The position numbers and the translations under genes are program-made. Below, piece by piece: positions 4,609 to 59,728 of a stretch of DNA of 64,000 nt. The DNA lies in the NCBI GenBank assembly GCA_965218285.1, contig OZ244616.1, positions 1,472,133 through 1,536,132 on the forward strand. The letters are read 5' to 3'. The DNA comes from Candidatus Poribacteria bacterium (GTDB lineage: Bacteria > Poribacteria > WGA-4E > WGA-3G). The notes beneath the pieces are model-generated. The model saw only the letters and a list, made by a program, of their open reading frames with translations, did no database searches and was not told the DNA's origin. Positions within the stretch are counted from its first letter, which is position 1; every line of letters begins with the position of its first letter.

Positions 4609-4690
4609 TGGTAGTTACGTAAATTTGGGGACAACTCCGACATATAATCGTATATTTTTTTGATAATATTGATTTATACCCATATACATG

Positions 4691-4892
4691 CAGGGCTATT
4701 TAGTTTTAAGAATTATCAGTTGATGAGTGTTACTGAAAGTTTATATTGTAGGTTGGGTAGAGCGATAGCGAAACCCAACATTTGCGTATACTTGTTGGGT
4801 TTCGCTATCGCTCTACCCAACCTACGATACTATTATAAGCATTAACGTGTGTGATAAAATGCGTCAGAAATATAGAAAACTAAATAACCCTG
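4691..4892. mobile_element. MITE family A, 202 bp, with 17-bp terminal inverted repeats CAGGGYTATTTAGTTTT and a 9-bp target-site duplication ATATACATG.
   Basis: Perfect TIRs CAGGGCTATTTAGTTTT / AAAACTAAATAACCCTG. The flanks ATATACATG are duplicated at 4682-4690 and 4893-4901. The interior carries an about 33-bp-stem palindrome (GTAGGTTGGGTAGAGCGATAGCGAAACCCAACA...). A second copy lies at 49082-49653. Confidence 0.8.
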
Positions 4893-8446: not shown

Positions 8447-8545
8447 GCTGCCATAAACATTTCATCCTTTGAATCAACATGAGTCCGTCAAATTCGCGTG
8501 TTAATTACTTGGACACTGTGGTAGGTGCGGTTTCCTAACCGCACC

Positions 8546-8833
8546 ATTAGCGTCAATTTAAGGAAATAAACCTATATTTTGGATATCTTAGCCCCAGCGG
8601 GGCGGAATGTGTATAGACCACGATCCATACCAAACTCAAGCCCCAGCGGGGCGAAAGGTGTATATGGGCACATGTTGTCAGACACCTGTCACCCCGCTGG
8701 GGTTCAAGAGACTGTTGGATACCGTTTTCTATGTACCTGTCGCACCGCTGGTGCTAAGATGTGATTTACCAAAGCTCGGGTAGGCGAAAGATGTATCAGA
8801 CGCACTAACGTTACGCACTAAATTGACGCCTAT
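8546..8833. mobile_element. MITE family B, shortened copy. TIRs ATTAGCGTCAATTTA / TAAATTGACGCCTAT, interior made of REP-like GCCCCAGCGGGGC hairpin units, flanked by a duplicated 22-bp palindromic target.
   Basis: Direct repeats GGTGCGGTTTCCTAACCGCACC lie at 8524-8545 and 8834-8855. Full-length 357-bp copies lie at 49168-49524 and 59260-59616. Confidence 0.75.
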
Positions 8834-10835: not shown

Positions 10836-11282
10836 TTTATCGAGTTTCGGTGTCAAAACCCAATGCTTTAGCTTTGGGATGTAGACACCGCCCTCTTGTA
10901 TTAGACCAAAACTTTTTCTTGACATAAAACACGATTCTTGCTATAATCTCTTTTCGTAACTCCACGGGTTGTGAGCAGGCGTTCTGGGTGCTACATACCG
11001 AGTGAACTCACGTAAAGTTGCGACACAAGCGGTAGAAGTCTTTGACACCAGATAGTTGCTGATGGAAGCTTAGAGTGTAATGGGAAAGAGTGGTAGGACA
11101 CCATCCCGAAAACAGCACTCTCAAAAATGTTCATAAGACACCTTCGGGTGTGCAGGCGGGGCATCGTCTGTTGGAGTAGAGGGTGTTAGACTTGCTTAGC
11201 AAGCAACCCTTGTTGATACCACAATCTACACAGCAGGTGGGACAAAAGAACCCCACTGCTTTAGCTGTGGGAGTATGTCAGA
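10836..11282 (+). mobile_element. 447-bp ORF-less element with IS200/IS605-like subterminal hairpins and an internal consensus sigma70 promoter (copy A, intergenic).
   Basis: Identical to 47313-47759 across the shared 447 bp as read. Left hairpin CCCAATGCTTTAGCTTTGGG at 10859-10878 and right hairpin CCCACTGCTTTAGCTGTGGG at 11252-11271 share the loop TGCTTTAGC. No ORF longer than 60 aa. Confidence 0.7.
10919..10947 (+). promoter_or_regulatory. Consensus sigma70 promoter inside the 447-bp element: TTGACA, 17 bp, TATAAT.
   Basis: TTGACA at 10919-10924, a 17-nt spacer, and TATAAT at 10942-10947. The same promoter lies at 47396-47424 in copy B. It would drive an about 330-nt non-coding transcript toward the right end of the element. 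Confidence 0.6.
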
Positions 11283-11569: not shown

Positions 11570-11640
11570 AGCCCCAGCGGGGCGAAAGGTGTATAGAAAC
11601 GCGGGTGAACAACCCTCTTAGCCCCAGCGGGGCGAAAGGT
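11570..11640 (+). repeat. REP-like doublet: two direct copies of AGCCCCAGCGGGGCGAAAGGTGT separated by 21 bp.
   Basis: The same unit builds the interior of MITE-B. A second stand-alone doublet lies at 18420-18500 followed by the same about 90-bp downstream sequence (..TAAGGTGTTTCC.TTGACC..AAAAATTGTCCAAAG..). Confidence 0.7.
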
Positions 11641-11733
11641 GTCCCAATAAATCTTATATTGATGTCTAAGGTGTTTCCATTGACCTTGACTATCACTCAA
11701 GAACTCTAAAAATTGTCCAAAGTATAGTATACT

Positions 11734-11866: not shown

Positions 11867-11932
11867 TTATACTAAGTTAAAAATTGTATTTTGTTAGAAA
11901 CCGTGGTTTTCACACTTGTATTTGTTAAACTT

Positions 11933-13300
11933 ATGAATTCCTTGAAACATCTTATTCAACGTTGTCATGAACGGCACGAAAAACCACTTCGGCAGCGAAA
12001 GACAGTGGTAACACCTGCGCTGTACAATAAGGGTTCTCCTTATCTCTTTACAACTTATTGTGCACAGAGATACCCTGTGCTGCTCGTTGACTTGGAACAA
12101 GCCAACATCTCGTTTATGCCGATAGGACAGGCTCCTGATAATGATCGTGGACCTCGGACTTTGGGGGGTGAACGTTTCTTGAAACGTCAGAGGATACGAG
12201 ATTGGGGAATGAGACGGTGGCACGCATCGTGGGGGATTCAGATATATACCGGTATTCCTTCCGAGCTTGATGGTGCACGGTGGCACGACTTCAATTTTTC
12301 GTATAAAGCCTTATGTGACGCCCCTGATGCCGTTCTTACATGTTTAGAGGCTCTTATTGACGCTGTTCCGAATCCACTTTTGACGATGTCAAAATCTGGA
12401 GGGTTACGTTTTTCTTGCAGAGTGCCTGATTATCTCCATCCAAATAACAAAGAGGCGAAATATTACATCTACAAGCATGCCTCCACTGCTGAAAATCCAC
12501 ACAAACGAGATGTGTATCTTAGAGTCCGTGGTAAGGAAGGACATAATCGATGGGATGCGCGCAATGAGATTCTGCTTGGAAACTTATTAGAACCGCCCAT
12601 CATAGCCAAAGAAGTTGTCTTTGCACCTATTGATGCGCTTCGTGCTGTGCTTCATGAACCCGTTTCCGAAAAAATAAAACTGGTAAAATTTGTCCCTGCA
12701 GTACCAATCTCCCTCGGTTCATACAATCTCGATCTCGCAAAAGAAGCACTTATGAATCGAGGTTTTTCTTATCTTCGTCAAGAAAATGTCTCTCACCTAT
12801 GGAGACCACCCAACAGTGAAATTGACGACAGGCATATATTGCTATGGGAAAACGAAGGCACGGTGTGGTTACGCGCATCAGCACCTGATATAGGACTGCC
12901 CACGGTGTCCACACCAATTACGGATATATGGGACAACACCGGGATAATCGCCCTAAAACCTCTTGCTGGTATATCTATCTCTAATAAGATACTTACAGTC
13001 CAAAAAGGCAAACTTAGTCCGTTGGCAATAAAACGCCCCTCGCCTATGTTGCACAAGTCACAACAGAAAGATAAGGTTTATGAGACACTTGAAAAGAATG
13101 GTGTTGAAATCCAGAATATCTTTGAGCGAACGGACAGCATTATCGGACTGATTGCGGACACAAGGTCAAAGAAACACTATGAAGCAGTATCCTATGTCAG
13201 CAAAGGTAGTGCCACTTGCGTAAACATGCCAACCTATAGGCATGCAGAAAAGTTAGAAACCCGCTATCAAAACCGCAATATACCATTGTCCCAACGCTGA
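11933..13300 (+). CDS. Large hypothetical protein with weak archaeo-eukaryotic primase / PrimPol-like motifs.
   Basis: Candidate AEP motif I is VLLVDLEQ, candidate motif II is SKSGGLRFSCRVP, and candidate motif III region is RDVYLRVRGKEGH. The segment is Trp/Arg-rich. No P-loop. Start chosen at MNSLKH; the ORF track M at 11891 abuts the MITE. The assignment is tentative. Confidence 0.3.
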   Translation: MNSLKHLIQRCHERHEKPLRQRKTVVTPALYNKGSPYLFTTYCAQRYPVLLVDLEQANISFMPIGQAPDNDRGPRTLGGERFLKRQRIRDWGMRRWHASWGIQIYTGIPSELDGARWHDFNFSYKALCDAPDAVLTCLEALIDAVPNPLLTMSKSGGLRFSCRVPDYLHPNNKEAKYYIYKHASTAENPHKRDVYLRVRGKEGHNRWDARNEILLGNLLEPPIIAKEVVFAPIDALRAVLHEPVSEKIKLVKFVPAVPISLGSYNLDLAKEALMNRGFSYLRQENVSHLWRPPNSEIDDRHILLWENEGTVWLRASAPDIGLPTVSTPITDIWDNTGIIALKPLAGISISNKILTVQKGKLSPLAIKRPSPMLHKSQQKDKVYETLEKNGVEIQNIFERTDSIIGLIADTRSKKHYEAVSYVSKGSATCVNMPTYRHAEKLETRYQNRNIPLSQR

Positions 13301-13309
13301 AAACCGCGT

Positions 13310-15322
13310 ATGTACCTGTGGGAGCAGGTAAAGAATATACCTATTGACGTTCGTATGGTAACTCCGTTTCAATTGGGTAATGTCTGTGAAGATCCGGAAC
13401 GGTGTGATGCGCTTGAAGAAAAGGGCGGTGATGCGCGTAAAAGCATCTGTCCGCAGTGTCCTGTCTATACGCAATGTCAGCAACGTGGATTTTTATCACA
13501 ACCCTCCTCATTACAACTCGCCCAGACACAAATATTAGCACTCCCCCAACTCTTTTTTGACCCACAATACGCGGAAATGGCAGAAGAAATCCTCATGCAA
13601 ATGGATGAGACCGAAAGGCTTTGCATCATCGACAGAACACAAGCCTACAAACTGTTTCCCGAATGTACACTATCGAAAAAGACATTGAAGGAATGGAGTG
13701 CCAATTGGCACGGAGGTGCCTTGGGTAACTTTGCCAGAGCTTTATTGCATGCAGTAGAAATCAAGGACAAACCTCATGCAGGTGCTGTCAAGCGGATTCG
13801 TGCAGTGATACATGCCTTTGAATGGCAGCAAGAGAGACTCATTAAACAGATGTGCCAAGTTAATGTCATGGGTAGGGTTGTCACACGCGAGTTTATTGAT
13901 CCTGACACCGGAAAGCAATTAGCACGTTTTACCGTTGAGTTCAAAAGCGGAACATCTGCTTACGTTCCTCTAAACAATGACGCTGCAGAAAAACTCACAG
14001 CCAAAAGATTACCCATTTTTTCATTGCCATCACTTGCGCTTAACGAAGACCTGAAAATTTGCACGCCGATTTCCAAAGCCATCGAATTAGGTATCTTCGC
14101 TATAGAGGACGTTGAAGACATCCAGAAATTACCGACAACCTGTCCAAATCCAGACTGGACGTATTGGCATCAACTCAAAAATTTCTTCGCGCACTACACT
14201 CAAGATGCCGACGCTCCGATACGGTGGACTAACAAAACACTAAAATTCTGGGTGCCACCGGTTCTGCACCCCAACGTCAAACGGCTGTTGTTAATGTCTG
14301 AAAACCTCTCCGAACAACATCTCCGTAGAGCATTCCCAGAGAAGAAAATTGAGGTGCGCCGTACCGAACCGACTCCTTGGGTCGCTGGAAACCAGGTCTT
14401 TCAAATACGGACAGGTGTCTATCCGCGCAAAGCGATTTTAGATTACAACAGCAACTGGGACCTTGTCGGTATATCTAAACTGGGACAACGTTTTTTTCTC
14501 GGTATCCATAATGAGATTGAAAAAGATCCGAGCATTAAGCATGCGATTATCACCTATAAATCAGTTGCCACACGGTTAGCGGATCTCGCAAAAAAAGAAA
14601 ATGTTTGTCTCGTGACAAATTTCGATAAGATGGATGGATTGACTGACGCTTTTGAAGAAGCACATGTTGTCTGGATAGTCGGCACACCAACACTGAAACA
14701 AAGACTCATCTGGCAGCGAGCACAAGTTTTGTTTGGAAACGACAAAGAACCCCTCTCTTATGAAGAAGATACAGAATACGGACACTATAAAGACGAACGA
14801 GTACAAAGTGTTTATGAACACGGTATCATCCCCAAACTTTCTCGCGCTGTACAATGTGCTAAGTTGGACAAGTTACCGAACAAGAAGGTCGTATTAATCT
14901 CAAGTTTGGCACTTCCACAAATCACTGACAGACCTGAAACACTGCTTTTCGACTGGGAAGATTTTGAGGTTGCTGGTGGACTTGACAAACTCTCTGAAGT
15001 GATTGTGATACGCGAACGTTTTGAAACAGAACGTGACAATCTAACTGGCAAATCCAGTAGAGAAAAAGTGGAGTATATCTTGGGATGCTCCTCAAGACAA
15101 GCGAACCGAGTTTTACACAAACTCAGAGGGGGAAAACCGCTTCGTATACCTTTCCGCGAACAGATCCTATCTCTGCTTGCCGATGGCGAGAAGAGAACTG
15201 CAGAACTTATTGAAGCCATTGAGGGACATCCAAAAGCCGTAAAAAATGAACTCAGCCGCCTTGTAGAAGTTGGTGAAATTGCAAAGGTACAGTGGGGTGT
15301 TTATTCCCTTCCAAAAACGTAA
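13310..15322 (+). CDS. Large hypothetical protein (670 aa) with an N-terminal Cys4 zinc-ribbon-like cluster and a C-terminal winged-helix domain.
   Basis: Cys cluster C-x5-C...CPQCPVYTQC in the first 60 aa. C-terminal wHTH-like segment EKRTAELIEAIEGHPKAVKNELSRLVEVGEIAKVQWGVYSL. No NTPase motifs. Separated from the upstream gene by a 9-bp gap, so a likely operon. Confidence 0.35.
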   Translation: MYLWEQVKNIPIDVRMVTPFQLGNVCEDPERCDALEEKGGDARKSICPQCPVYTQCQQRGFLSQPSSLQLAQTQILALPQLFFDPQYAEMAEEILMQMDETERLCIIDRTQAYKLFPECTLSKKTLKEWSANWHGGALGNFARALLHAVEIKDKPHAGAVKRIRAVIHAFEWQQERLIKQMCQVNVMGRVVTREFIDPDTGKQLARFTVEFKSGTSAYVPLNNDAAEKLTAKRLPIFSLPSLALNEDLKICTPISKAIELGIFAIEDVEDIQKLPTTCPNPDWTYWHQLKNFFAHYTQDADAPIRWTNKTLKFWVPPVLHPNVKRLLLMSENLSEQHLRRAFPEKKIEVRRTEPTPWVAGNQVFQIRTGVYPRKAILDYNSNWDLVGISKLGQRFFLGIHNEIEKDPSIKHAIITYKSVATRLADLAKKENVCLVTNFDKMDGLTDAFEEAHVVWIVGTPTLKQRLIWQRAQVLFGNDKEPLSYEEDTEYGHYKDERVQSVYEHGIIPKLSRAVQCAKLDKLPNKKVVLISSLALPQITDRPETLLFDWEDFEVAGGLDKLSEVIVIRERFETERDNLTGKSSREKVEYILGCSSRQANRVLHKLRGGKPLRIPFREQILSLLADGEKRTAELIEAIEGHPKAVKNELSRLVEVGEIAKVQWGVYSLPKT

Positions 15323-18195: not shown

Positions 18196-18594
18196 TTCGT
18201 GTCCCAGACCAAAGCGTGGGACAGAGAAAAAACAGTTGAGATATTTTATAGGTTTTGTTATAATATCTACTAAAGTTTGGACAATTTGTGTGATATTCAG
18301 GCAGCCCTTTCAAGCCGTAAGGCGTGCTTTGGCTCGAAAATCTGTCTAATATTCTGCGATTTTGTTTCTTTAAGACAACTCACAGAAAAAGCGACTTCGG
18401 ATCCAGCAAACAGCAGCCCCAGCAGGGCGACAGGTGTATAGAAAACCAAGCCCCTCACGACATTCAAGCCCCAGCGGGGCGATAGGTGTATAGAAAATCT
18501 TATACGAATGCATAAGGTGTTTTCGTTGACCCAGCCTATTGAACGAGAATTCTTAAAAATTGTCCAAAGCTTAGTAATATCTATAGCATTGCTA

Positions 18595-46678: not shown

Positions 46679-47870
46679 CTATCTGGTGGAAATTTGCCCA
46701 CGCATATAAGAACCTTCATCGGAAGCCAGAAACGTCAGCACTCTCGCAACACCAGCGGGATCACCCAAGGATTTCACCGCATTGGCAACGGCTTCATCCG
46801 GGTCTTTTCCATCAAGTTTTGCAGACTGCGCAATTTGTCCGAGTTTAAGCGGTGTAGCGAGTCCACCAGGGCATATCGTGTGTATGCGGATGTTAAGTGA
46901 AGCGACTTGGTTTTCTACTGTCATCACAAGACCGTTAACACCGCCTTTGCTTGAAGCGTAAGCGATTGATGAACTTCCACCGCGAATCCCCGCCCCTGAA
47001 GCAATGCAGAGGATAACACCCCCGCCACTATTTCCCATTATAGGCACAGCATGTTTGAGCGCAAAAAAAGTGCCTTTAAGGTTAACATCAATTACTGAAT
47101 CAAAAGTTGCCGCATCAAAATCTTCTATACGGACACTTGCTCCCTGCAAGATACCCGCACAAGTCACTAAAGTATCAATTCGACCATACGTATCTTCAGC
47201 AGCATGCATTAGATTGGAGACGTCGACTTCAGAAGTGACATCGGTGTAACAGAATTTAGCATCACCGCCATTTTTCGTTATTATTTTTAACGTCTCTTGT
47301 CCATCAAGTCCGTTTATCGAGTTTCGGTGTCAAAACCCAATGCTTTAGCTTTGGGATGTAGACACCGCCCTCTTGTATTAGACCAAAACTTTTTCTTGAC
47401 ATAAAACACGATTCTTGCTATAATCTCTTTTCGTAACTCCACGGGTTGTGAGCAGGCGTTCTGGGTGCTACATACCGAGTGAACTCACGTAAAGTTGCGA
47501 CACAAGCGGTAGAAGTCTTTGACACCAGATAGTTGCTGATGGAAGCTTAGAGTGTAATGGGAAAGAGTGGTAGGACACCATCCCGAAAACAGCACTCTCA
47601 AAAATGTTCATAAGACACCTTCGGGTGTGCAGGCGGGGCATCGTCTGTTGGAGTAGAGGGTGTTAGACTTGCTTAGCAAGCAACCCTTGTTGATACCACA
47701 ATCTACACAGCAGGTGGGACAAAAGAACCCCACTGCTTTAGCTGTGGGAGTATGTCAGATCTCCCATAACAACTTTAGCCCCTGCTTCAGCGTATGCAAG
47801 GGCAGTCGCAGCACCGATACCTGTTGCCGCACCAATTACCGCAACCTTATCTGAGAGTTGGATATTCACT
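46679..47870 (-). pseudogene. Short-chain dehydrogenase/reductase gene interrupted by a 447-bp element inserted after codon about 40.
   Basis: The N-terminal Rossmann segment VNIQLSDKVAVIGAATGIGAATALAYAEAGAKVVMGD is encoded at 47870-47760. The rest (GLDGQETLK...YASSKGG...) is encoded at 47312-46679. The catalytic YxxxK is read as YASSK. Precise removal of 47313-47759 restores one continuous in-frame ORF. Confidence 0.75.
47313..47759 (+). mobile_element. 447-bp IS200/IS605-like ORF-less element, copy B, inserted in the SDR gene in antisense orientation.
   Basis: Identical to 10836-11282 across the shared 447 bp as read. Carries the consensus promoter at 47396-47424. No target duplication, which is consistent with IS200/IS605-type insertion. 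Confidence 0.7.
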
Positions 47871-49081: not shown

Positions 49082-49653
49082 CAGGGTTATTTAGTTTTAA
49101 GAATTATCAGTTGATGAGTGTTACTGATAGTTTATTTCGTAGGTCGGGTAGAGCGGTAGCGAAACCCATAGGCGTCAATTTAAGGAAATAAACCTATATT
49201 TTGGATATCTTAGCCCCAGCGGGGCGGAATGTGTATAGACCACGATCCATACCAAACTCAAGCCCCAGCGGGGCGAAAGGTGTATATGGGCACATGTTGT
49301 CAGACACCTGTCACCCCGCTGGGGTTCAAGAGACTGTTGGACACCGTTTTCTATATACCTGTCGCCCCGCTGGGGCTAAAGAGTTGTGGGTATCACTTTT
49401 TCTATACACCTGTCGCCCCGCTGGGGCTAAAGAGTTGTGGGTGCTTTCGTTGCTATAAACATATCGTCCCTACGGGACTAAAGAGGGTTTCTCGGACACG
49501 GAAAACCACTAAATTGACGCTTATGGGTAGAGCGGTAGCGAAACCCGACATGAACTAAACGTGTCGGGTTTCGCAAACTCTACCCAACGGACAGGTAGTT
49601 TATATAGAAATGTGAAAAAATATAGCAGAAAAACCGAAAACTAAATAACCCTG
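49082..49653. mobile_element. MITE family A, copy 2, with a 10-bp TSD CATCATCAAG, carrying a nested MITE family B insertion.
   Basis: TIRs CAGGGTTATTTAGTTTT / AAAACTAAATAACCCTG. CATCATCAAG at 49072-49081 and 49654-49663. The internal palindrome arm GGGTAGAGCGGTAGCGAAACCC is duplicated around the nested element. Confidence 0.8.
49168..49524 (+). mobile_element. MITE family B, full-length 357 bp, nested inside MITE-A. Interior is a tandem array of REP-like GCCCCAGCGGGGC hairpin units in both orientations.
   Basis: TIRs ATAGGCGTCAATTTA / TAAATTGACGCTTAT. A 22-bp direct repeat GGGTAGAGCGGTAGCGAAACCC flanks it at 49146-49167 and 49525-49546. Two about 40-bp tandem units TATACACCTGTCGCCCCGCTGGGGCTAAAGAGTTGTGGGT are present. 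The ORFs 49201-49458 and 49229-49558 from the ORF track are artefacts of this repeat. Confidence 0.8.
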
Positions 49654-49738
49654 CATCATCAAGAAAAAACTTGCAATATCCAAAAATATTTGGTAGAATT
49701 ATAATGAATTCGTTTCATATCAGGAGGAGATATACCAA

Positions 49739-49969
49739 GTGGACATTAGAATTGAGTACTGCACATCCTGAAACTATAAACCACGGGCAGCCAGTTTGGC
49801 AGAAGCCTTAGAAGAAAAATATAGTGGTCAGGTTGAAGACGTGAAACTCGTTGAAAGTAGTGGTGGGGCTTTTGAAGTATATTTAAACGAGGAGTTGCTC
49901 TACTCTAAGTTAGAAAGTCGACAATTTCCTACAACTGAGCAAATCACCAAATCTATTGACAAAGCATAA
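49739..49969 (+). CDS. selW: SelW-like (Rdx family) selenoprotein with an in-frame TGA (Sec) codon at 49769-49771.
   Basis: Translation gives VDIRIEYCTS-U-NYKPRAASLAEALEEKYSGQVEDVKLVESSGGAFEVYLNEELLYSKLESRQFPTTEQITKSIDKA. This matches the Rdx consensus IEYCxxU.Y..RA..LA..L....V..V.L..SSGGAFEV.L...L.YSK.....FP. RBS AGGAGG lies 10 nt upstream of the GTG start. A perfect terminator hairpin follows. Confidence 0.7.
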
Positions 49970-49976
49970 CTAATAG

Positions 49977-50010
49977 CAATGGGCATGGTAGTAGTTACCA
50001 TGCCCATTCT
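49977..50010. terminator. Bidirectional rho-independent terminator between the convergent selW-like and lactonase genes.
   Basis: Perfect hairpin ATGGGCATGGTAGTAGTTACCATGCCCAT followed by TTCTTCTT. Confidence 0.6.
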
Positions 50011-50031
50011 TCTTAACATTTCTCTACGTTT

Positions 50032-51093
50032 CTATACAAAAAGCACCCACATCGGGTTTTTCCCCACCGCATAACTTTCAATTAGTGATAGCAATCCACT
50101 TTCCCGATTGATACGGTAAGTAGCAAGTTTACCTGATCCTTGTCCACCAACAAATAGGTAGTTCCCAGTCTCGTCAATGTTAAAAACGCGAGGTGTTGGC
50201 TCTGTGAGTTGATGTCCCAAAGCGGTTAACTCTCCACTCTCATCATCAATTGAAAATATCGCAATGCTGTCATGCCCGCGATTAGAGACATAAAGAAACT
50301 TCCCGTGCGGATCAATGTGAATTTGCGCGCAGCTATTATGCTCATCAAAATCCTCAGGAAGCGTGGAAAACGTTTGAAATTGCCACAAAAGTCCGGGAGC
50401 ATCATGAACGGTGTAGTCGGGAGCACCTGATTTTGGGATTGATACCTCTGGATCACCTTTCTGAAGGTTGTAAGCAGAAACACTTGATCCCTGCTCATTT
50501 GAAAAATAAAAGATCGGTTTGTTCGGATGTTCGCAGTAGTGCCGAGGTCCATCTGGGTCATCAGGATTAAAATTCCCAAAAAAGTTTTGGGTCAACTTGC
50601 CAGTATCAGCATCAAAATGGAATTGGTAGATAGCGTTCCGAGGAACGGTGTGTGGGACAAAAGCAAAACGGTTTGATACGTCTGTTTCAATATAGTGGGC
50701 GTGTGGAGCTGTTTCAATGGTTTGGATCGGTTCACCTTGAGCAGTTTTATCATCACTGATCGCATGCACGGTAACCTTACCAGCACCGTAATACGCGGCA
50801 AGCAAAAAGTTACCCGTTTTGTCTGTTGCGATGTAGCATGTATCCGCATCCAGTTGAATAGTTCGCAAAAGTGAGAGACCTTTACTCTCCTCATCAATAC
50901 GGAAAGTGGCAATTTCTCGGCTGGAGCGAAGCCCCGCATATAAGTAGTTACCACACGGTGACAAAGTTAAAGGTCCAGGAGACCCATTAACATCAACATT
51001 TTCCTGTAACTCAATTGCACCATTAGATACATCAAACGTATAAATGGCGATTCTGTTTTCGCCAGCAATAGAAAGATAAACGTGAGATTGCAT
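50032..51093 (-). CDS. 7-bladed beta-propeller lactonase (6-phosphogluconolactonase / carboxy-muconate lactonizing enzyme family).
   Basis: Repeated blade motifs (LYVSNRGHDSIAIFSIDDESGEL, LFVGGQGSGKLATYRINRESGLL) characteristic of the lactonase propeller family. Confidence 0.6.
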   Translation of the reverse strand: MQSHVYLSIAGENRIAIYTFDVSNGAIELQENVDVNGSPGPLTLSPCGNYLYAGLRSSREIATFRIDEESKGLSLLRTIQLDADTCYIATDKTGNFLLAAYYGAGKVTVHAISDDKTAQGEPIQTIETAPHAHYIETDVSNRFAFVPHTVPRNAIYQFHFDADTGKLTQNFFGNFNPDDPDGPRHYCEHPNKPIFYFSNEQGSSVSAYNLQKGDPEVSIPKSGAPDYTVHDAPGLLWQFQTFSTLPEDFDEHNSCAQIHIDPHGKFLYVSNRGHDSIAIFSIDDESGELTALGHQLTEPTPRVFNIDETGNYLFVGGQGSGKLATYRINRESGLLSLIESYAVGKNPMWVLFV

Positions 51094-53174: not shown

Positions 53175-54545
53175 TCATTCAGGGAGTGGACAGACACCCT
53201 CAAATTCAAGTAGCGCGGAATCTTCGTTTATATCATATTGAAAACGCTGCCCTTTAAATTTAACTTGTAATGCTGTTGGATTGAGTAGTTTCAAATCTAA
53301 TTGGAGTATATCTTCAACCGTGTTTGATAACTTCAAATATAGTACAGAAATTAAACGGGCGAACTTCTCAAATGTTTCTGGCGTTCTTTTGAAATGTTGG
53401 TAGAGTTCAGGGATAGGTGAAGTAAGGGCTTGGAGTCTATTTCCATATTGTGATGAGAGTTCACCCCGGATCTGAACCTCTAACAGCATCTGATCAAAGA
53501 CATTTGCTTGCATTAGGGATGAACTAACTGTTTCTAACTTTTCATCAAGGAGGAGACGTTTAGCACGCGTATTAGCAATCTGATCTAATGTAAGATATTC
53601 AAAATTAACTTTCTCTGTTTGATGCTTAAATGTCTTTCCTGTCGTGTCCTCAATGAGAATAAGTTTCCACACAGTCTCCTCTTCAGTCGAAATTTGTGTT
53701 ACCTCTCGCGGCTTTATCCATGCCGCATCTTCTTTATGTGCGAAAGCAAGTAGATCATGTTGATCTTTCCGCAATGAACATAGAAAAGCAGCATGTTCAG
53801 ATGAAGTAGGGGTAAGTGTTATAGAAATCTCCTTTGAATCCCACTGCACCTCTTGAAACGGAATGAAATAATGCTGTCCTTCTACTGAGCGAAATAAAAC
53901 GCAGTTATCGTTTTCCTTTTCTTTATTGCCTGCAGCGTTTACAGGTTCAGAAAATTCGGATGGTATAACGTCAAGAATCTTCTGAATACCAATATCCCAG
54001 TCCTCATGAAGATTAACATATTGAAGATCTTGTAGAGTTACACCCTCTCCAATATTAATATCAGGAATCTCACATTCGTTCAATTTTACAGGGATAAACC
54101 AAACCTTATCAACAGGTTTTTGTTGAAGTTTATCAATTGCGATTGACAGTTCTTCATTCATGTAAGTCTTGTCGCGAACGTTATATTCCTTTGAAAAACA
54201 TGCAATAAAGAAATCTCCGTGATGAATTGCTTGTTGAATCGCTTGTTTCCAGGGCGTTCCAGGGTTTAAATTATCCCAATCCACCCAAACAGTGACGTTA
54301 TTTGAGGTAAGGGCATTGCAAAGTTGGTCTACAGCAGCCTTGTTCTCATGGCAGTAGGAGATAAAGACATGCCGCATTTCTCTGGCGTGTTTAATCTCCA
54401 TGTTAACATGGTTGATTAAGCGTGCTCGGAAAACTTCACGACGTCTTTTATGTGCTTCGGGTCCTCGTCGGATTTGGGACGGATCGGGTGCGTTATCACG
54501 CGTATAGGCTTCATAGTCGAATTCAACTTCTTTTGTAGTATGCAT
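53175..54545 (-). CDS. TIR-domain protein of 456 aa: a short N-terminal segment, a TIR domain, then an about 250-aa uncharacterised C-terminal domain.
   Basis: TIR_2-type core RHVFISYCHENKAAVDQLCNALTSNNVTVWVDWDNLNPGTPWKQAIQQAIHHGDFFIACFSKEYNVRDKTYMNEELSIAIDKLQ. A conserved Glu sits in the NEEL helix. The start codon lies inside the 3' end of the upstream BrnT-like gene, a 23-nt overlap. Confidence 0.75.
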   Translation of the reverse strand: MHTTKEVEFDYEAYTRDNAPDPSQIRRGPEAHKRRREVFRARLINHVNMEIKHAREMRHVFISYCHENKAAVDQLCNALTSNNVTVWVDWDNLNPGTPWKQAIQQAIHHGDFFIACFSKEYNVRDKTYMNEELSIAIDKLQQKPVDKVWFIPVKLNECEIPDINIGEGVTLQDLQYVNLHEDWDIGIQKILDVIPSEFSEPVNAAGNKEKENDNCVLFRSVEGQHYFIPFQEVQWDSKEISITLTPTSSEHAAFLCSLRKDQHDLLAFAHKEDAAWIKPREVTQISTEEETVWKLILIEDTTGKTFKHQTEKVNFEYLTLDQIANTRAKRLLLDEKLETVSSSLMQANVFDQMLLEVQIRGELSSQYGNRLQALTSPIPELYQHFKRTPETFEKFARLISVLYLKLSNTVEDILQLDLKLLNPTALQVKFKGQRFQYDINEDSALLEFEGVCPLPE

Positions 54546-58951: not shown

Positions 58952-59259
58952 TCAATGTTCAATGTATACATCTACAATCTCCCGTACCGATGATGAATTT
59001 ACAACACAAAAAATATTGGGAGATATAACAATTCTTTGGTCCCCGTAAGATGTGCTAAGAGATGAAAACTTATGAGATATGGTAACCAAATAATATCTTT
59101 TGAATTTCAGAATTACCCTGTTTTAAACATTAATCTTCTTAATTATACCTTAAAATACACCAAATTGCAACTATACCTGTGCTAAAGGCAGAGCCATTCA
59201 ATTTCCATTTTCGGTCTGGCTTTACCCGGATCCGGTAGATGTGGTTTCCTAACCGCACC

Positions 59260-59616
59260 ATAGGCGTCAATTTAGTGGTTTTCCGTGTCCGAGAAACCCT
59301 CTTTAGTCCCGTAGGGACGATATGTTTATAGCAACGAAAGCACCCACAACTCTTTAGCCCCAGCGGGGCGACAGGTGTATAGAAAAAGTGATACCCACAA
59401 CTCTTTAGCCCCAGCGAGGCGACAGGTATATAGAAAACGGTGTCCAACAGTCTCTTGAACCCCAGCGGGGTGACAGGTGTCTGACAACATGTGCCCATAT
59501 ACACCTTTCGCCCCGCTGGGGCTTGAGTTTGGTATGGATCGTGGTCTATACACATTCCGCCCCGCTGGGGCTAAGATATCCAAAATATAGGTTTATTTCC
59601 TTAAATTGACGCCTAT
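59260..59616 (-). mobile_element. MITE family B, full-length copy in inverse orientation relative to 49168-49524.
   Basis: Same 357 bp with a handful of point differences. Flanked by 20-22-bp direct repeats TGTGGTTTCCTAACCGCACC / GATGCGGTTTCCTAACCGCACC. The ORF-track ORFs 59139-59555 and 59326-59583 are artefacts. Confidence 0.8.
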
Positions 59617-59728
59617 GATGCGGTTTCCTAACCGCACCTTCCAGGCAGCAGGTTCTTAGCGCGTAACTCTTTTCTCAAATTGATACTGATGGGTTGAACA
59701 ACGGTTAACTTAGATAGTGAAGTGAGAA

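Follow-up and report, generated by a model that had tools for sequence, protein, structure and literature searches.

Does the in-frame UGA at positions 49769-49771 end a ten-residue peptide, or is it decoded as an amino acid within a longer protein? The question is raised by a short GTG-started frame on the forward strand of a 64,000-nucleotide stretch of genome from an uncultured Candidatus Poribacteria bacterium, the whole of which we analysed and refer to here as the window. With a probability of about 0.93, we read positions 49739-49969 (+ strand) as a standalone gene of this bacterium that encodes a 76-residue SelW-like (Rdx family) thiol/selenol oxidoreductase, its UGA specifying selenocysteine (Sec, U).

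A UGA codon within the redox motif of a SelW-like protein

The first-pass annotation, made from the sequence alone, described a GTG-started ORF interrupted by an in-frame TGA at 49769-49771, and direct reading of the sequence confirmed it. The frame opens with GTG at 49739-49741, reads V/M-D-I-R-I-E-Y-C-T-S (VDIRIEYCTS) and then meets the TGA, which is codon 11. Sixty-five sense codons follow (NYKPRAASLAEALEEKYSGQ...SIDKA), not 66 as initially counted, before the TAA at 49967-49969. The distance between AGGAGG and the GTG likewise needed correction, from 10 nt to 11 nt. The features of the locus are as follows.

49671-49699, + strand: putative sigma-70-type promoter; -35 TTGCAA (49671-49676), 17-nt spacer, extended -10 TGgTAGAAT (49691-49699); 9 of 12 matches in a consensus scan, plus TG
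49722-49727, + strand: Shine-Dalgarno sequence AGGAGG, 11 nt 5' of the start codon; conserved in the 81-sequence upstream alignment
49739-49969, + strand: SelW-like (Rdx family) predicted selenoprotein coding sequence, 76 codons plus TAA, GTG start; from Pfam, PDB matches and AF2/Foldseek
49760-49771, + strand: candidate redox motif C-T-S-U, TGC ACA TCC TGA; from TGA conservation, alignment with CxxC and Sec/Cys pairing
49785-49808, + strand: putative bacterial SECIS hairpin; lower stem 49785-49788/49805-49808, bulged A 49789, upper stem 49790-49793/49797-49800, apical loop GUU 49794-49796, internal loop 49801-49804
49978-50008, no strand assigned: terminator-like 13-bp hairpin between the convergent SelW-like (+) and lactonase (-) genes; from a scan, -21.7 kcal/mol

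The family assignment is clear. Scored with C in place of U, the 76-residue product matched the Pfam Rdx family PF10262 (SelW/SelT/SelH/Rdx12) at 87.6 bits (E=6.4e-25) over profile positions 2-73 of 74, the gathering score being 22.6 bits. Sequence matches in the PDB comprised MIEN1 (2ljk), mouse SelW (2npb) and the bacterial SelW-related structures 2fa8, 3dex, 2p0g, 2ojl, 2obk and 2oka. An AF2 model, made on a homologue (P0001) that is 91% identical to the window protein and carries W in place of U, reached a pLDDT of 93.4 and showed a b-a-b-b-b-a topology, in agreement with the thioredoxin-like fold given for the Rdx family (PMC3527542). Foldseek placed this model closest to 2fa8 (TM 0.93, rmsd 1.0 Å), with mouse SelW and thioredoxins lower down. 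Strand 1 spans residues 3-8 and helix 1 residues 14-27, and C8-T-S-U11 lies in the loop between them. In the alignments with the solved Rdx structures 2fa8, 3dex and 2ljk, U11 falls opposite the second Cys of CxxC. The predicted function is thiol/selenol redox chemistry in which the Cys8-x-x-Sec11 pair would cycle between a selenenylsulfide and a reduced form.

Conservation of the UGA codon and translation of the upstream frame

A scan for relatives with one genome per species returned 80 loci at 62-92% amino acid identity, 77 of them titled Poribacteria and three 'uncultured bacterium'. TGA occupies codon 11 in every one of these 80 loci, each from a different species genome, and the peptide is kept on either side of it. 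Across the 81 sequences, codons 2-10 retain their amino acids while varying synonymously (ATT/ATA/ATC at I5; all four ACN codons at T9). The frame upstream of the UGA is thus translated and under protein-level selection. This supports the initial judgement that Sec read-through is likelier than a truncated 10-aa peptide. The annotation had named as evidence against read-through the case in which homologues all stop at this position; they do not stop there.

The start codon differs between the window and its relatives: GTG in the former, ATG in all 80 related loci, which indicates a recent A-to-G change. The genome closest to the window, L001 (OZ250160.1), has neighbouring genes 94-98% identical to those of the window and reads CCAAATG where the window reads CCAAGTG.

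A conserved hairpin downstream of the UGA

Sec decoding in bacteria, as the first-pass annotation pointed out, calls for a SECIS hairpin immediately 3' of the UGA. We found a hairpin 16-39 nt downstream of the UGA, its GUU loop lying at 22 nt with G in first position. Besides being conserved, it shows no variation at its paired synonymous sites and covaries among distant relatives. Counted with the U of UGA as position 1, the lower stem pairs 17-20 with 37-40, A21 is bulged, the upper stem pairs 22-25 with 29-32 (GCCA/UGGC), the apical loop is G26 U27 U28 and the internal loop covers 33-36. According to two papers (PMC1088965; PMC13582414), a bacterial SECIS has a small apical loop with G at the first or second position; G26 is invariant in the 81 sequences.

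Taken alone the hairpin is modest, at -8 kcal/mol, and its single-sequence z of -0.99 for the 62 nt after the UGA is not significant; we therefore relied on comparative analysis. The RNAalifold consensus of the 81 sequences is exactly the proposed hairpin. Pairing holds in 520 of 520 cells (100%), whereas sliding the 3' partners lowers the figure to 24-51%. Stem changes within Poribacteria are one-sided and pair-preserving (G-U to A-U or G-C; G-C to G-U), and the invariance of the stem leaves no double-sided compensatory changes there. In the upper stem, two Ala codons dictate two of the four pairs.

The signal is strongest at synonymous sites. Codons 16 (CGG), 18 (GCC), 19 (AGT), 20 (TTG) and 23 (GCC), whose third bases lie in the stems or loop, have zero synonymous entropy, as against 0.24-1.9 bits for the other 19 conserved codons from families with at least four codons. 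The third bases of codons 15, 17, 21 and 24, which are unpaired inside the element, do vary. By chance, exactly these five codons would rank lowest of the 24 once in 42,504 times. These data show that the hairpin is selected at the RNA level, beyond its codons. At the gathering threshold Rfam gave no hit of any family in the whole window, and none of its SECIS models matched 49650-50050 at E<=10.

In the mechanism that we propose, UGA codon 11 would be read as selenocysteine rather than as a stop because the mRNA folds, 16-39 nt past the UGA, into a SECIS hairpin in which a bulged A separates lower and upper stems of 4 bp each and the loop is GUU. The hairpin, predicted to bind SelB, would recruit SelB carrying GTP and Sec-tRNA(Sec), and selenium would probably be incorporated at codon 11.

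Cysteine and UGA forms in the wider family

Searched exhaustively, the 50%-identity representatives yielded 275 relatives, the best 150 of which were aligned. The first position of the motif is Cys in 140 of these best 150. At the Sec position 86 print W, which stands for UGA, 45 have Cys and seven have G. The statement that Rdx/SelW proteins carry CxxU or CxxC at exactly this position is therefore borne out both by this pairing of Cys with UGA and by the PDB alignments. At the DNA level, all seven W forms checked have TGA, and TGC and TGT were confirmed as the Cys codons of two others (L084 and L089, respectively). TGA at the same codon in 80 of 80 species genomes and in seven of seven distant relatives checked is far beyond chance. 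The seven distant relatives with G at the Sec position (CxxG) have long N-terminal extensions.

A small-loop hairpin lies 15-36 nt after the UGA in all seven distant UGA forms; the loop sequences, GUU, GGA, GUU, AGUUG, GUC, AGUUA and AGUU, have G as their first or second base. Four of the seven share the register of the window's hairpin exactly. The peptide of the distant sequence L087 is different (A-L-S-L-R), and both partners have been replaced in three of its four upper-stem pairs. The distant Sec forms show 100% pairing with three of four pairs compensatory, all of the compensatory pairs coming from L087; 6 of 500 shuffles matched this result, and slid controls paired at 18-39%. The two Cys forms gave a mixed picture, the hairpin being lost in L084 and present as a weak 4-bp version in L089, and so we do not rely on Cys forms as a negative control. 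The L089 hairpin (L089:301-534, protein P0069, TGT) has G first in its loop and stands at SECIS distance; it may have been left over from a Sec ancestor, or it may simply follow from the A-A-S-L-A codons.

Selenocysteine machinery and possible decoding as cysteine

Neither SelA, SelB nor SelD was detected with Pfam among 40 window ORFs (the 39 largest and one of 130 aa). No tRNA was found in the 64-kb window, or by ARAGORN in the 80 related loci with 3-kb flanks on each side. In Table S4 of PMC5649159, SelA, SelB and SelD COGs are listed for the Poribacteria genomes bin44, bin70 and WGA-3G, and PMC13582414 reports Sec-type group 4 hydrogenases in Poribacteria. From these published data on other Poribacteria, it is reasonable to infer that the present organism has Sec machinery.

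We leave a slim chance that the UGA is not, or not only, a Sec codon: a tRNA-ReC/SelC* would insert Cys, and this phylum-wide, strongly promoted gene would be subject to conditional Sec/Cys recoding by selenium supply in the sponge host. The chance is slimmer still that the UGA is decoded through its SECIS as cysteine, whether by a tRNA-ReC (SelC*)-type tRNA or by SelB with a mischarged tRNA under selenium scarcity. tRNA-ReC-like tRNAs do read UGA as Cys with a SECIS, in ~13-17% of the genomes surveyed according to a 2026 study (PMC13582414), and our results do not tell Sec from Cys insertion. SECIS-dependent Cys insertion is nevertheless unlikely because Sec machinery is reported in the phylum, both as SelA, SelB and SelD COGs in three genomes and through the Sec-type hydrogenases. 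Moreover, a plain UGC would be the simpler way to a Cys product, yet a Cys codon occurs in none of the 80 Poribacteria loci, and the literature text covered contains no report of tRNA-ReC in Poribacteria. In a milder version of the idea, retention of the Sec form in all 80 species with no Cys switch would mean that the phylum is obligately selenium-dependent.

Termination, annotation and the genetic code

Less probable again is that the UGA terminates translation, leaving a 10-residue peptide and/or a 57-residue protein started at TTG 49796, or a pseudogene. Annotation does take this form: mechanical ORF calling yields only the TTG-started 57-aa fragment (49796-49969), so that the gene was indeed missed by the ORF track as first noted, and the public NCBI/JGI annotations give the same 57-aa fragment. 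In 81 sequences, however, the ten upstream codons show synonymous variation and protein-level conservation; they provide strand 1 and the CxxU motif, and without them neither the Rdx fold nor the redox site is complete. The upstream alignment places a conserved Shine-Dalgarno sequence directly before codon 1. A nonsense mutation, for its part, would not last in 80 of 80 species.

Databases carry a second form of the protein. A protein search returned 28 relatives, the named ones being Candidatus Poribacteria, and 18 sequences were retrieved. Eight of the 18 are fragments that begin just past the UGA (seven of 57-58 aa, one of 64 aa) and the other ten are full-length (76-86 residues), every one of the ten printing W at the Sec position. 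The calls with W (P0001-P0017 and P0029 onwards; L085-L092) come from contigs of ~0.5-1.7 kb, and long contigs truncate the protein to 57 aa. We think that the W calls are an artefact of a gene caller that switched to code 4 on short contigs. Within the window, TGA terminates 12 of 40 large ORFs, and 11 of these have a second stop 1-23 codons further on. The code in use is the standard one, with TGA an ordinary stop elsewhere in the window. Least probable of all, then, is a reassigned code in which UGA is a sense codon for Trp (code 4) or Gly (code 25): it could draw on the ten full-length W forms and on the G of the seven more distant relatives, but it is opposed by this ordinary use of TGA, by the 57-aa calls on contigs of several Mb, which show that code 11 was applied there, by the short contigs behind the W forms, and by the family partner at the Sec position, which is Cys and not Trp.

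A second selenoprotein candidate in the window was rejected. At 11891-15322 (+), ORFs of 469 and 670 aa lie in the same frame, split by TGA 13298-13300 and three codons; the pair has no Pfam family and no Shine-Dalgarno sequence, and a SECIS-like hairpin with G in its loop follows. Homologues read through this position as one uninterrupted protein with a genuine TGG (Trp) codon, or with R or Y in two others. TGA 13298 is a TGG-to-TGA nonsense change, that is, a split gene, a pseudogene or a sequencing error. The UGA of the SelW-like gene differs from this true nonsense codon, and the window illustrates how Sec-UGA and nonsense-UGA are told apart: by frozen synonymous sites in the SECIS and Cys/UGA partners on the one hand, and by TGG partners on the other. 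No other credible TGA-bridged ORF was found in the intergenic gaps of the window.

Relation to known SelW-like proteins and SECIS elements

Bacterial SelW-like CxxU proteins were described in 2005. Among prokaryotic selenoprotein families they ranked first in abundance both in the Sargasso Sea, with 48 genes (PMC1088965), and in the GOS data, with 427 Sec against 56 Cys genes, especially in marine samples (PMC2398784). The gene studied here shares with them the Pfam family, a length of ~75-85 aa, the N-terminal CxxU, the marine source, a coding-region SECIS that directly follows the UGA and has a small, G-containing apical loop, and the excess of Sec over Cys forms. It shows every testable defining feature of this already-known family, of which it is a misannotated member. 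There is no fundamental difference, and Candidatus Poribacteria is not singled out in either study (PMC1088965, PMC2398784). Particular to the Poribacteria gene are the fixation of the Sec form in 80 of 80 species and a SECIS that is nearly invariant in nucleotides. The passages covered of the literature on Poribacteria and selenocysteine make no mention of this gene.

The Cys-containing Rdx proteins 2FA8 (Atu0228), 2P0G, 2OBK, 2OJL, 2OKA and 3DEX have the same fold (TM 0.90-0.93, rmsd 0.9-1.4 Å, 25-33% identity) and the motif in the same place; they differ in having CxxC, no UGA or SECIS, and ~100-108 residues with extra termini. Mammalian SelW (2NPB) and MIEN1 (2LJK) are likewise Rdx proteins of thioredoxin-like b-a-b-b-b-a topology, with CxxU (SelW) or CxxC (MIEN1) in an exposed loop past strand 1, although their structural similarity is lower (TM 0.60-0.69).

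With regard to decoding, the E. coli fdhF SECIS is a SelB-binding hairpin in which 11 nt separate the UGA from the minimal hairpin. The Poribacteria hairpin has in common with it a position directly 3' of the UGA, a small loop exposing G-U, a bulge on the 5' side of the upper stem and overlap with coding sequence. Sequence and stem lengths differ, and the UGA lies 18 nt from the upper stem in the Poribacteria gene as against 11 nt in fdhF. Eukaryotic SelW depends on a 3'-UTR SECIS with SBP2 and eEFSec and not on a SelB hairpin within the coding sequence (PMC1088965).

Selenoprotein biology as known is unchanged by this gene, and its value lies in annotation. In at least 80 Poribacteria species genomes the gene is entered either as a 57-residue fragment that has lost the active site or at its full 76 residues with a spurious Trp. 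Corrected, it provides one clear selenoprotein for a phylum of sponge symbionts and implies selenium use by that phylum.

Transcription unit and genomic neighbourhood

A promoter-like sequence precedes the SelW-like gene at 49671-49699, and the pattern cTTGCAAT...17 nt...TGGTAaAAT is conserved in nearly all 80 Poribacteria loci, which suggests promoter function. Downstream, the first-pass annotation reported a strong terminator. The 13-bp hairpin at 49978-50008 (about -21.7 kcal/mol) upholds that description in part; the + strand tail, CTTCTTAACATTTC, is only moderately T-rich, and the consensus scan called a terminator on the - strand only. Most of 15 sampled relatives also have terminator-like hairpins past the stop codon, followed in several by T-runs. 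The flanking genes lie on the opposite strand, with a TonB-C protein upstream and a lactonase, an enoyl-CoA hydratase and a cupin protein downstream. This arrangement, together with the gene's own conserved promoter and terminator hairpins, indicates that the SelW-like gene is monocistronic; it would be transcribed from its own conserved extended -10 promoter, with a predicted start near 49706 and an end at the hairpin terminator. Synteny around the gene is only partial among the related loci, and the genomic context offers no hint of a partner for the SelW-like protein.

Repeats occur on the upstream side. The intergenic region directly before the putative promoter is filled by a member of a dispersed repeat family with internal repeated units (49167-49527). 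Other copies, 97-99% identical within the window, lie at 59258-59617 (inverted), 8544-8757, 4673-4892, 11570-11643 and 18415-18505. Related copies are present in the loci L004, L019, L024 and L031, and the equivalent spacer of L001 differs in content. Further upstream, a 447-bp element occurs twice in the window with 100% identity, at 47313-47759 and 10836-11282. The copy at 47313 splits a short-chain dehydrogenase (SDR) gene on the - strand into a C-terminal part (46679-47209) and an N-terminal part (47738-47869); the C-terminal part has a full-length, uninterrupted alignment in other Poribacteria. We found no terminal inverted repeats, long ORF or Rfam family in the 447-bp element.

On the downstream side, 53175-54545 (-) encodes a 456-aa protein with a TIR_2 domain (E=1.5e-25). 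This gene is variable, being found beside the SelW region in 3 of the 80 related loci, and is possibly defence-related. Elsewhere in the window, a cluster at 19011-42549 (+) contains three sulfatases with dockerin and FlgD-Ig/Por-secretion tails, four sulfotransferases, a MurJ-like flippase, and Wzy-like, LRR and FG-GAP proteins, and is followed by Wzi, a glycosyltransferase and a sugar transferase. The cluster is typical of the carbohydrate and sulfated-glycan equipment of Poribacteria.
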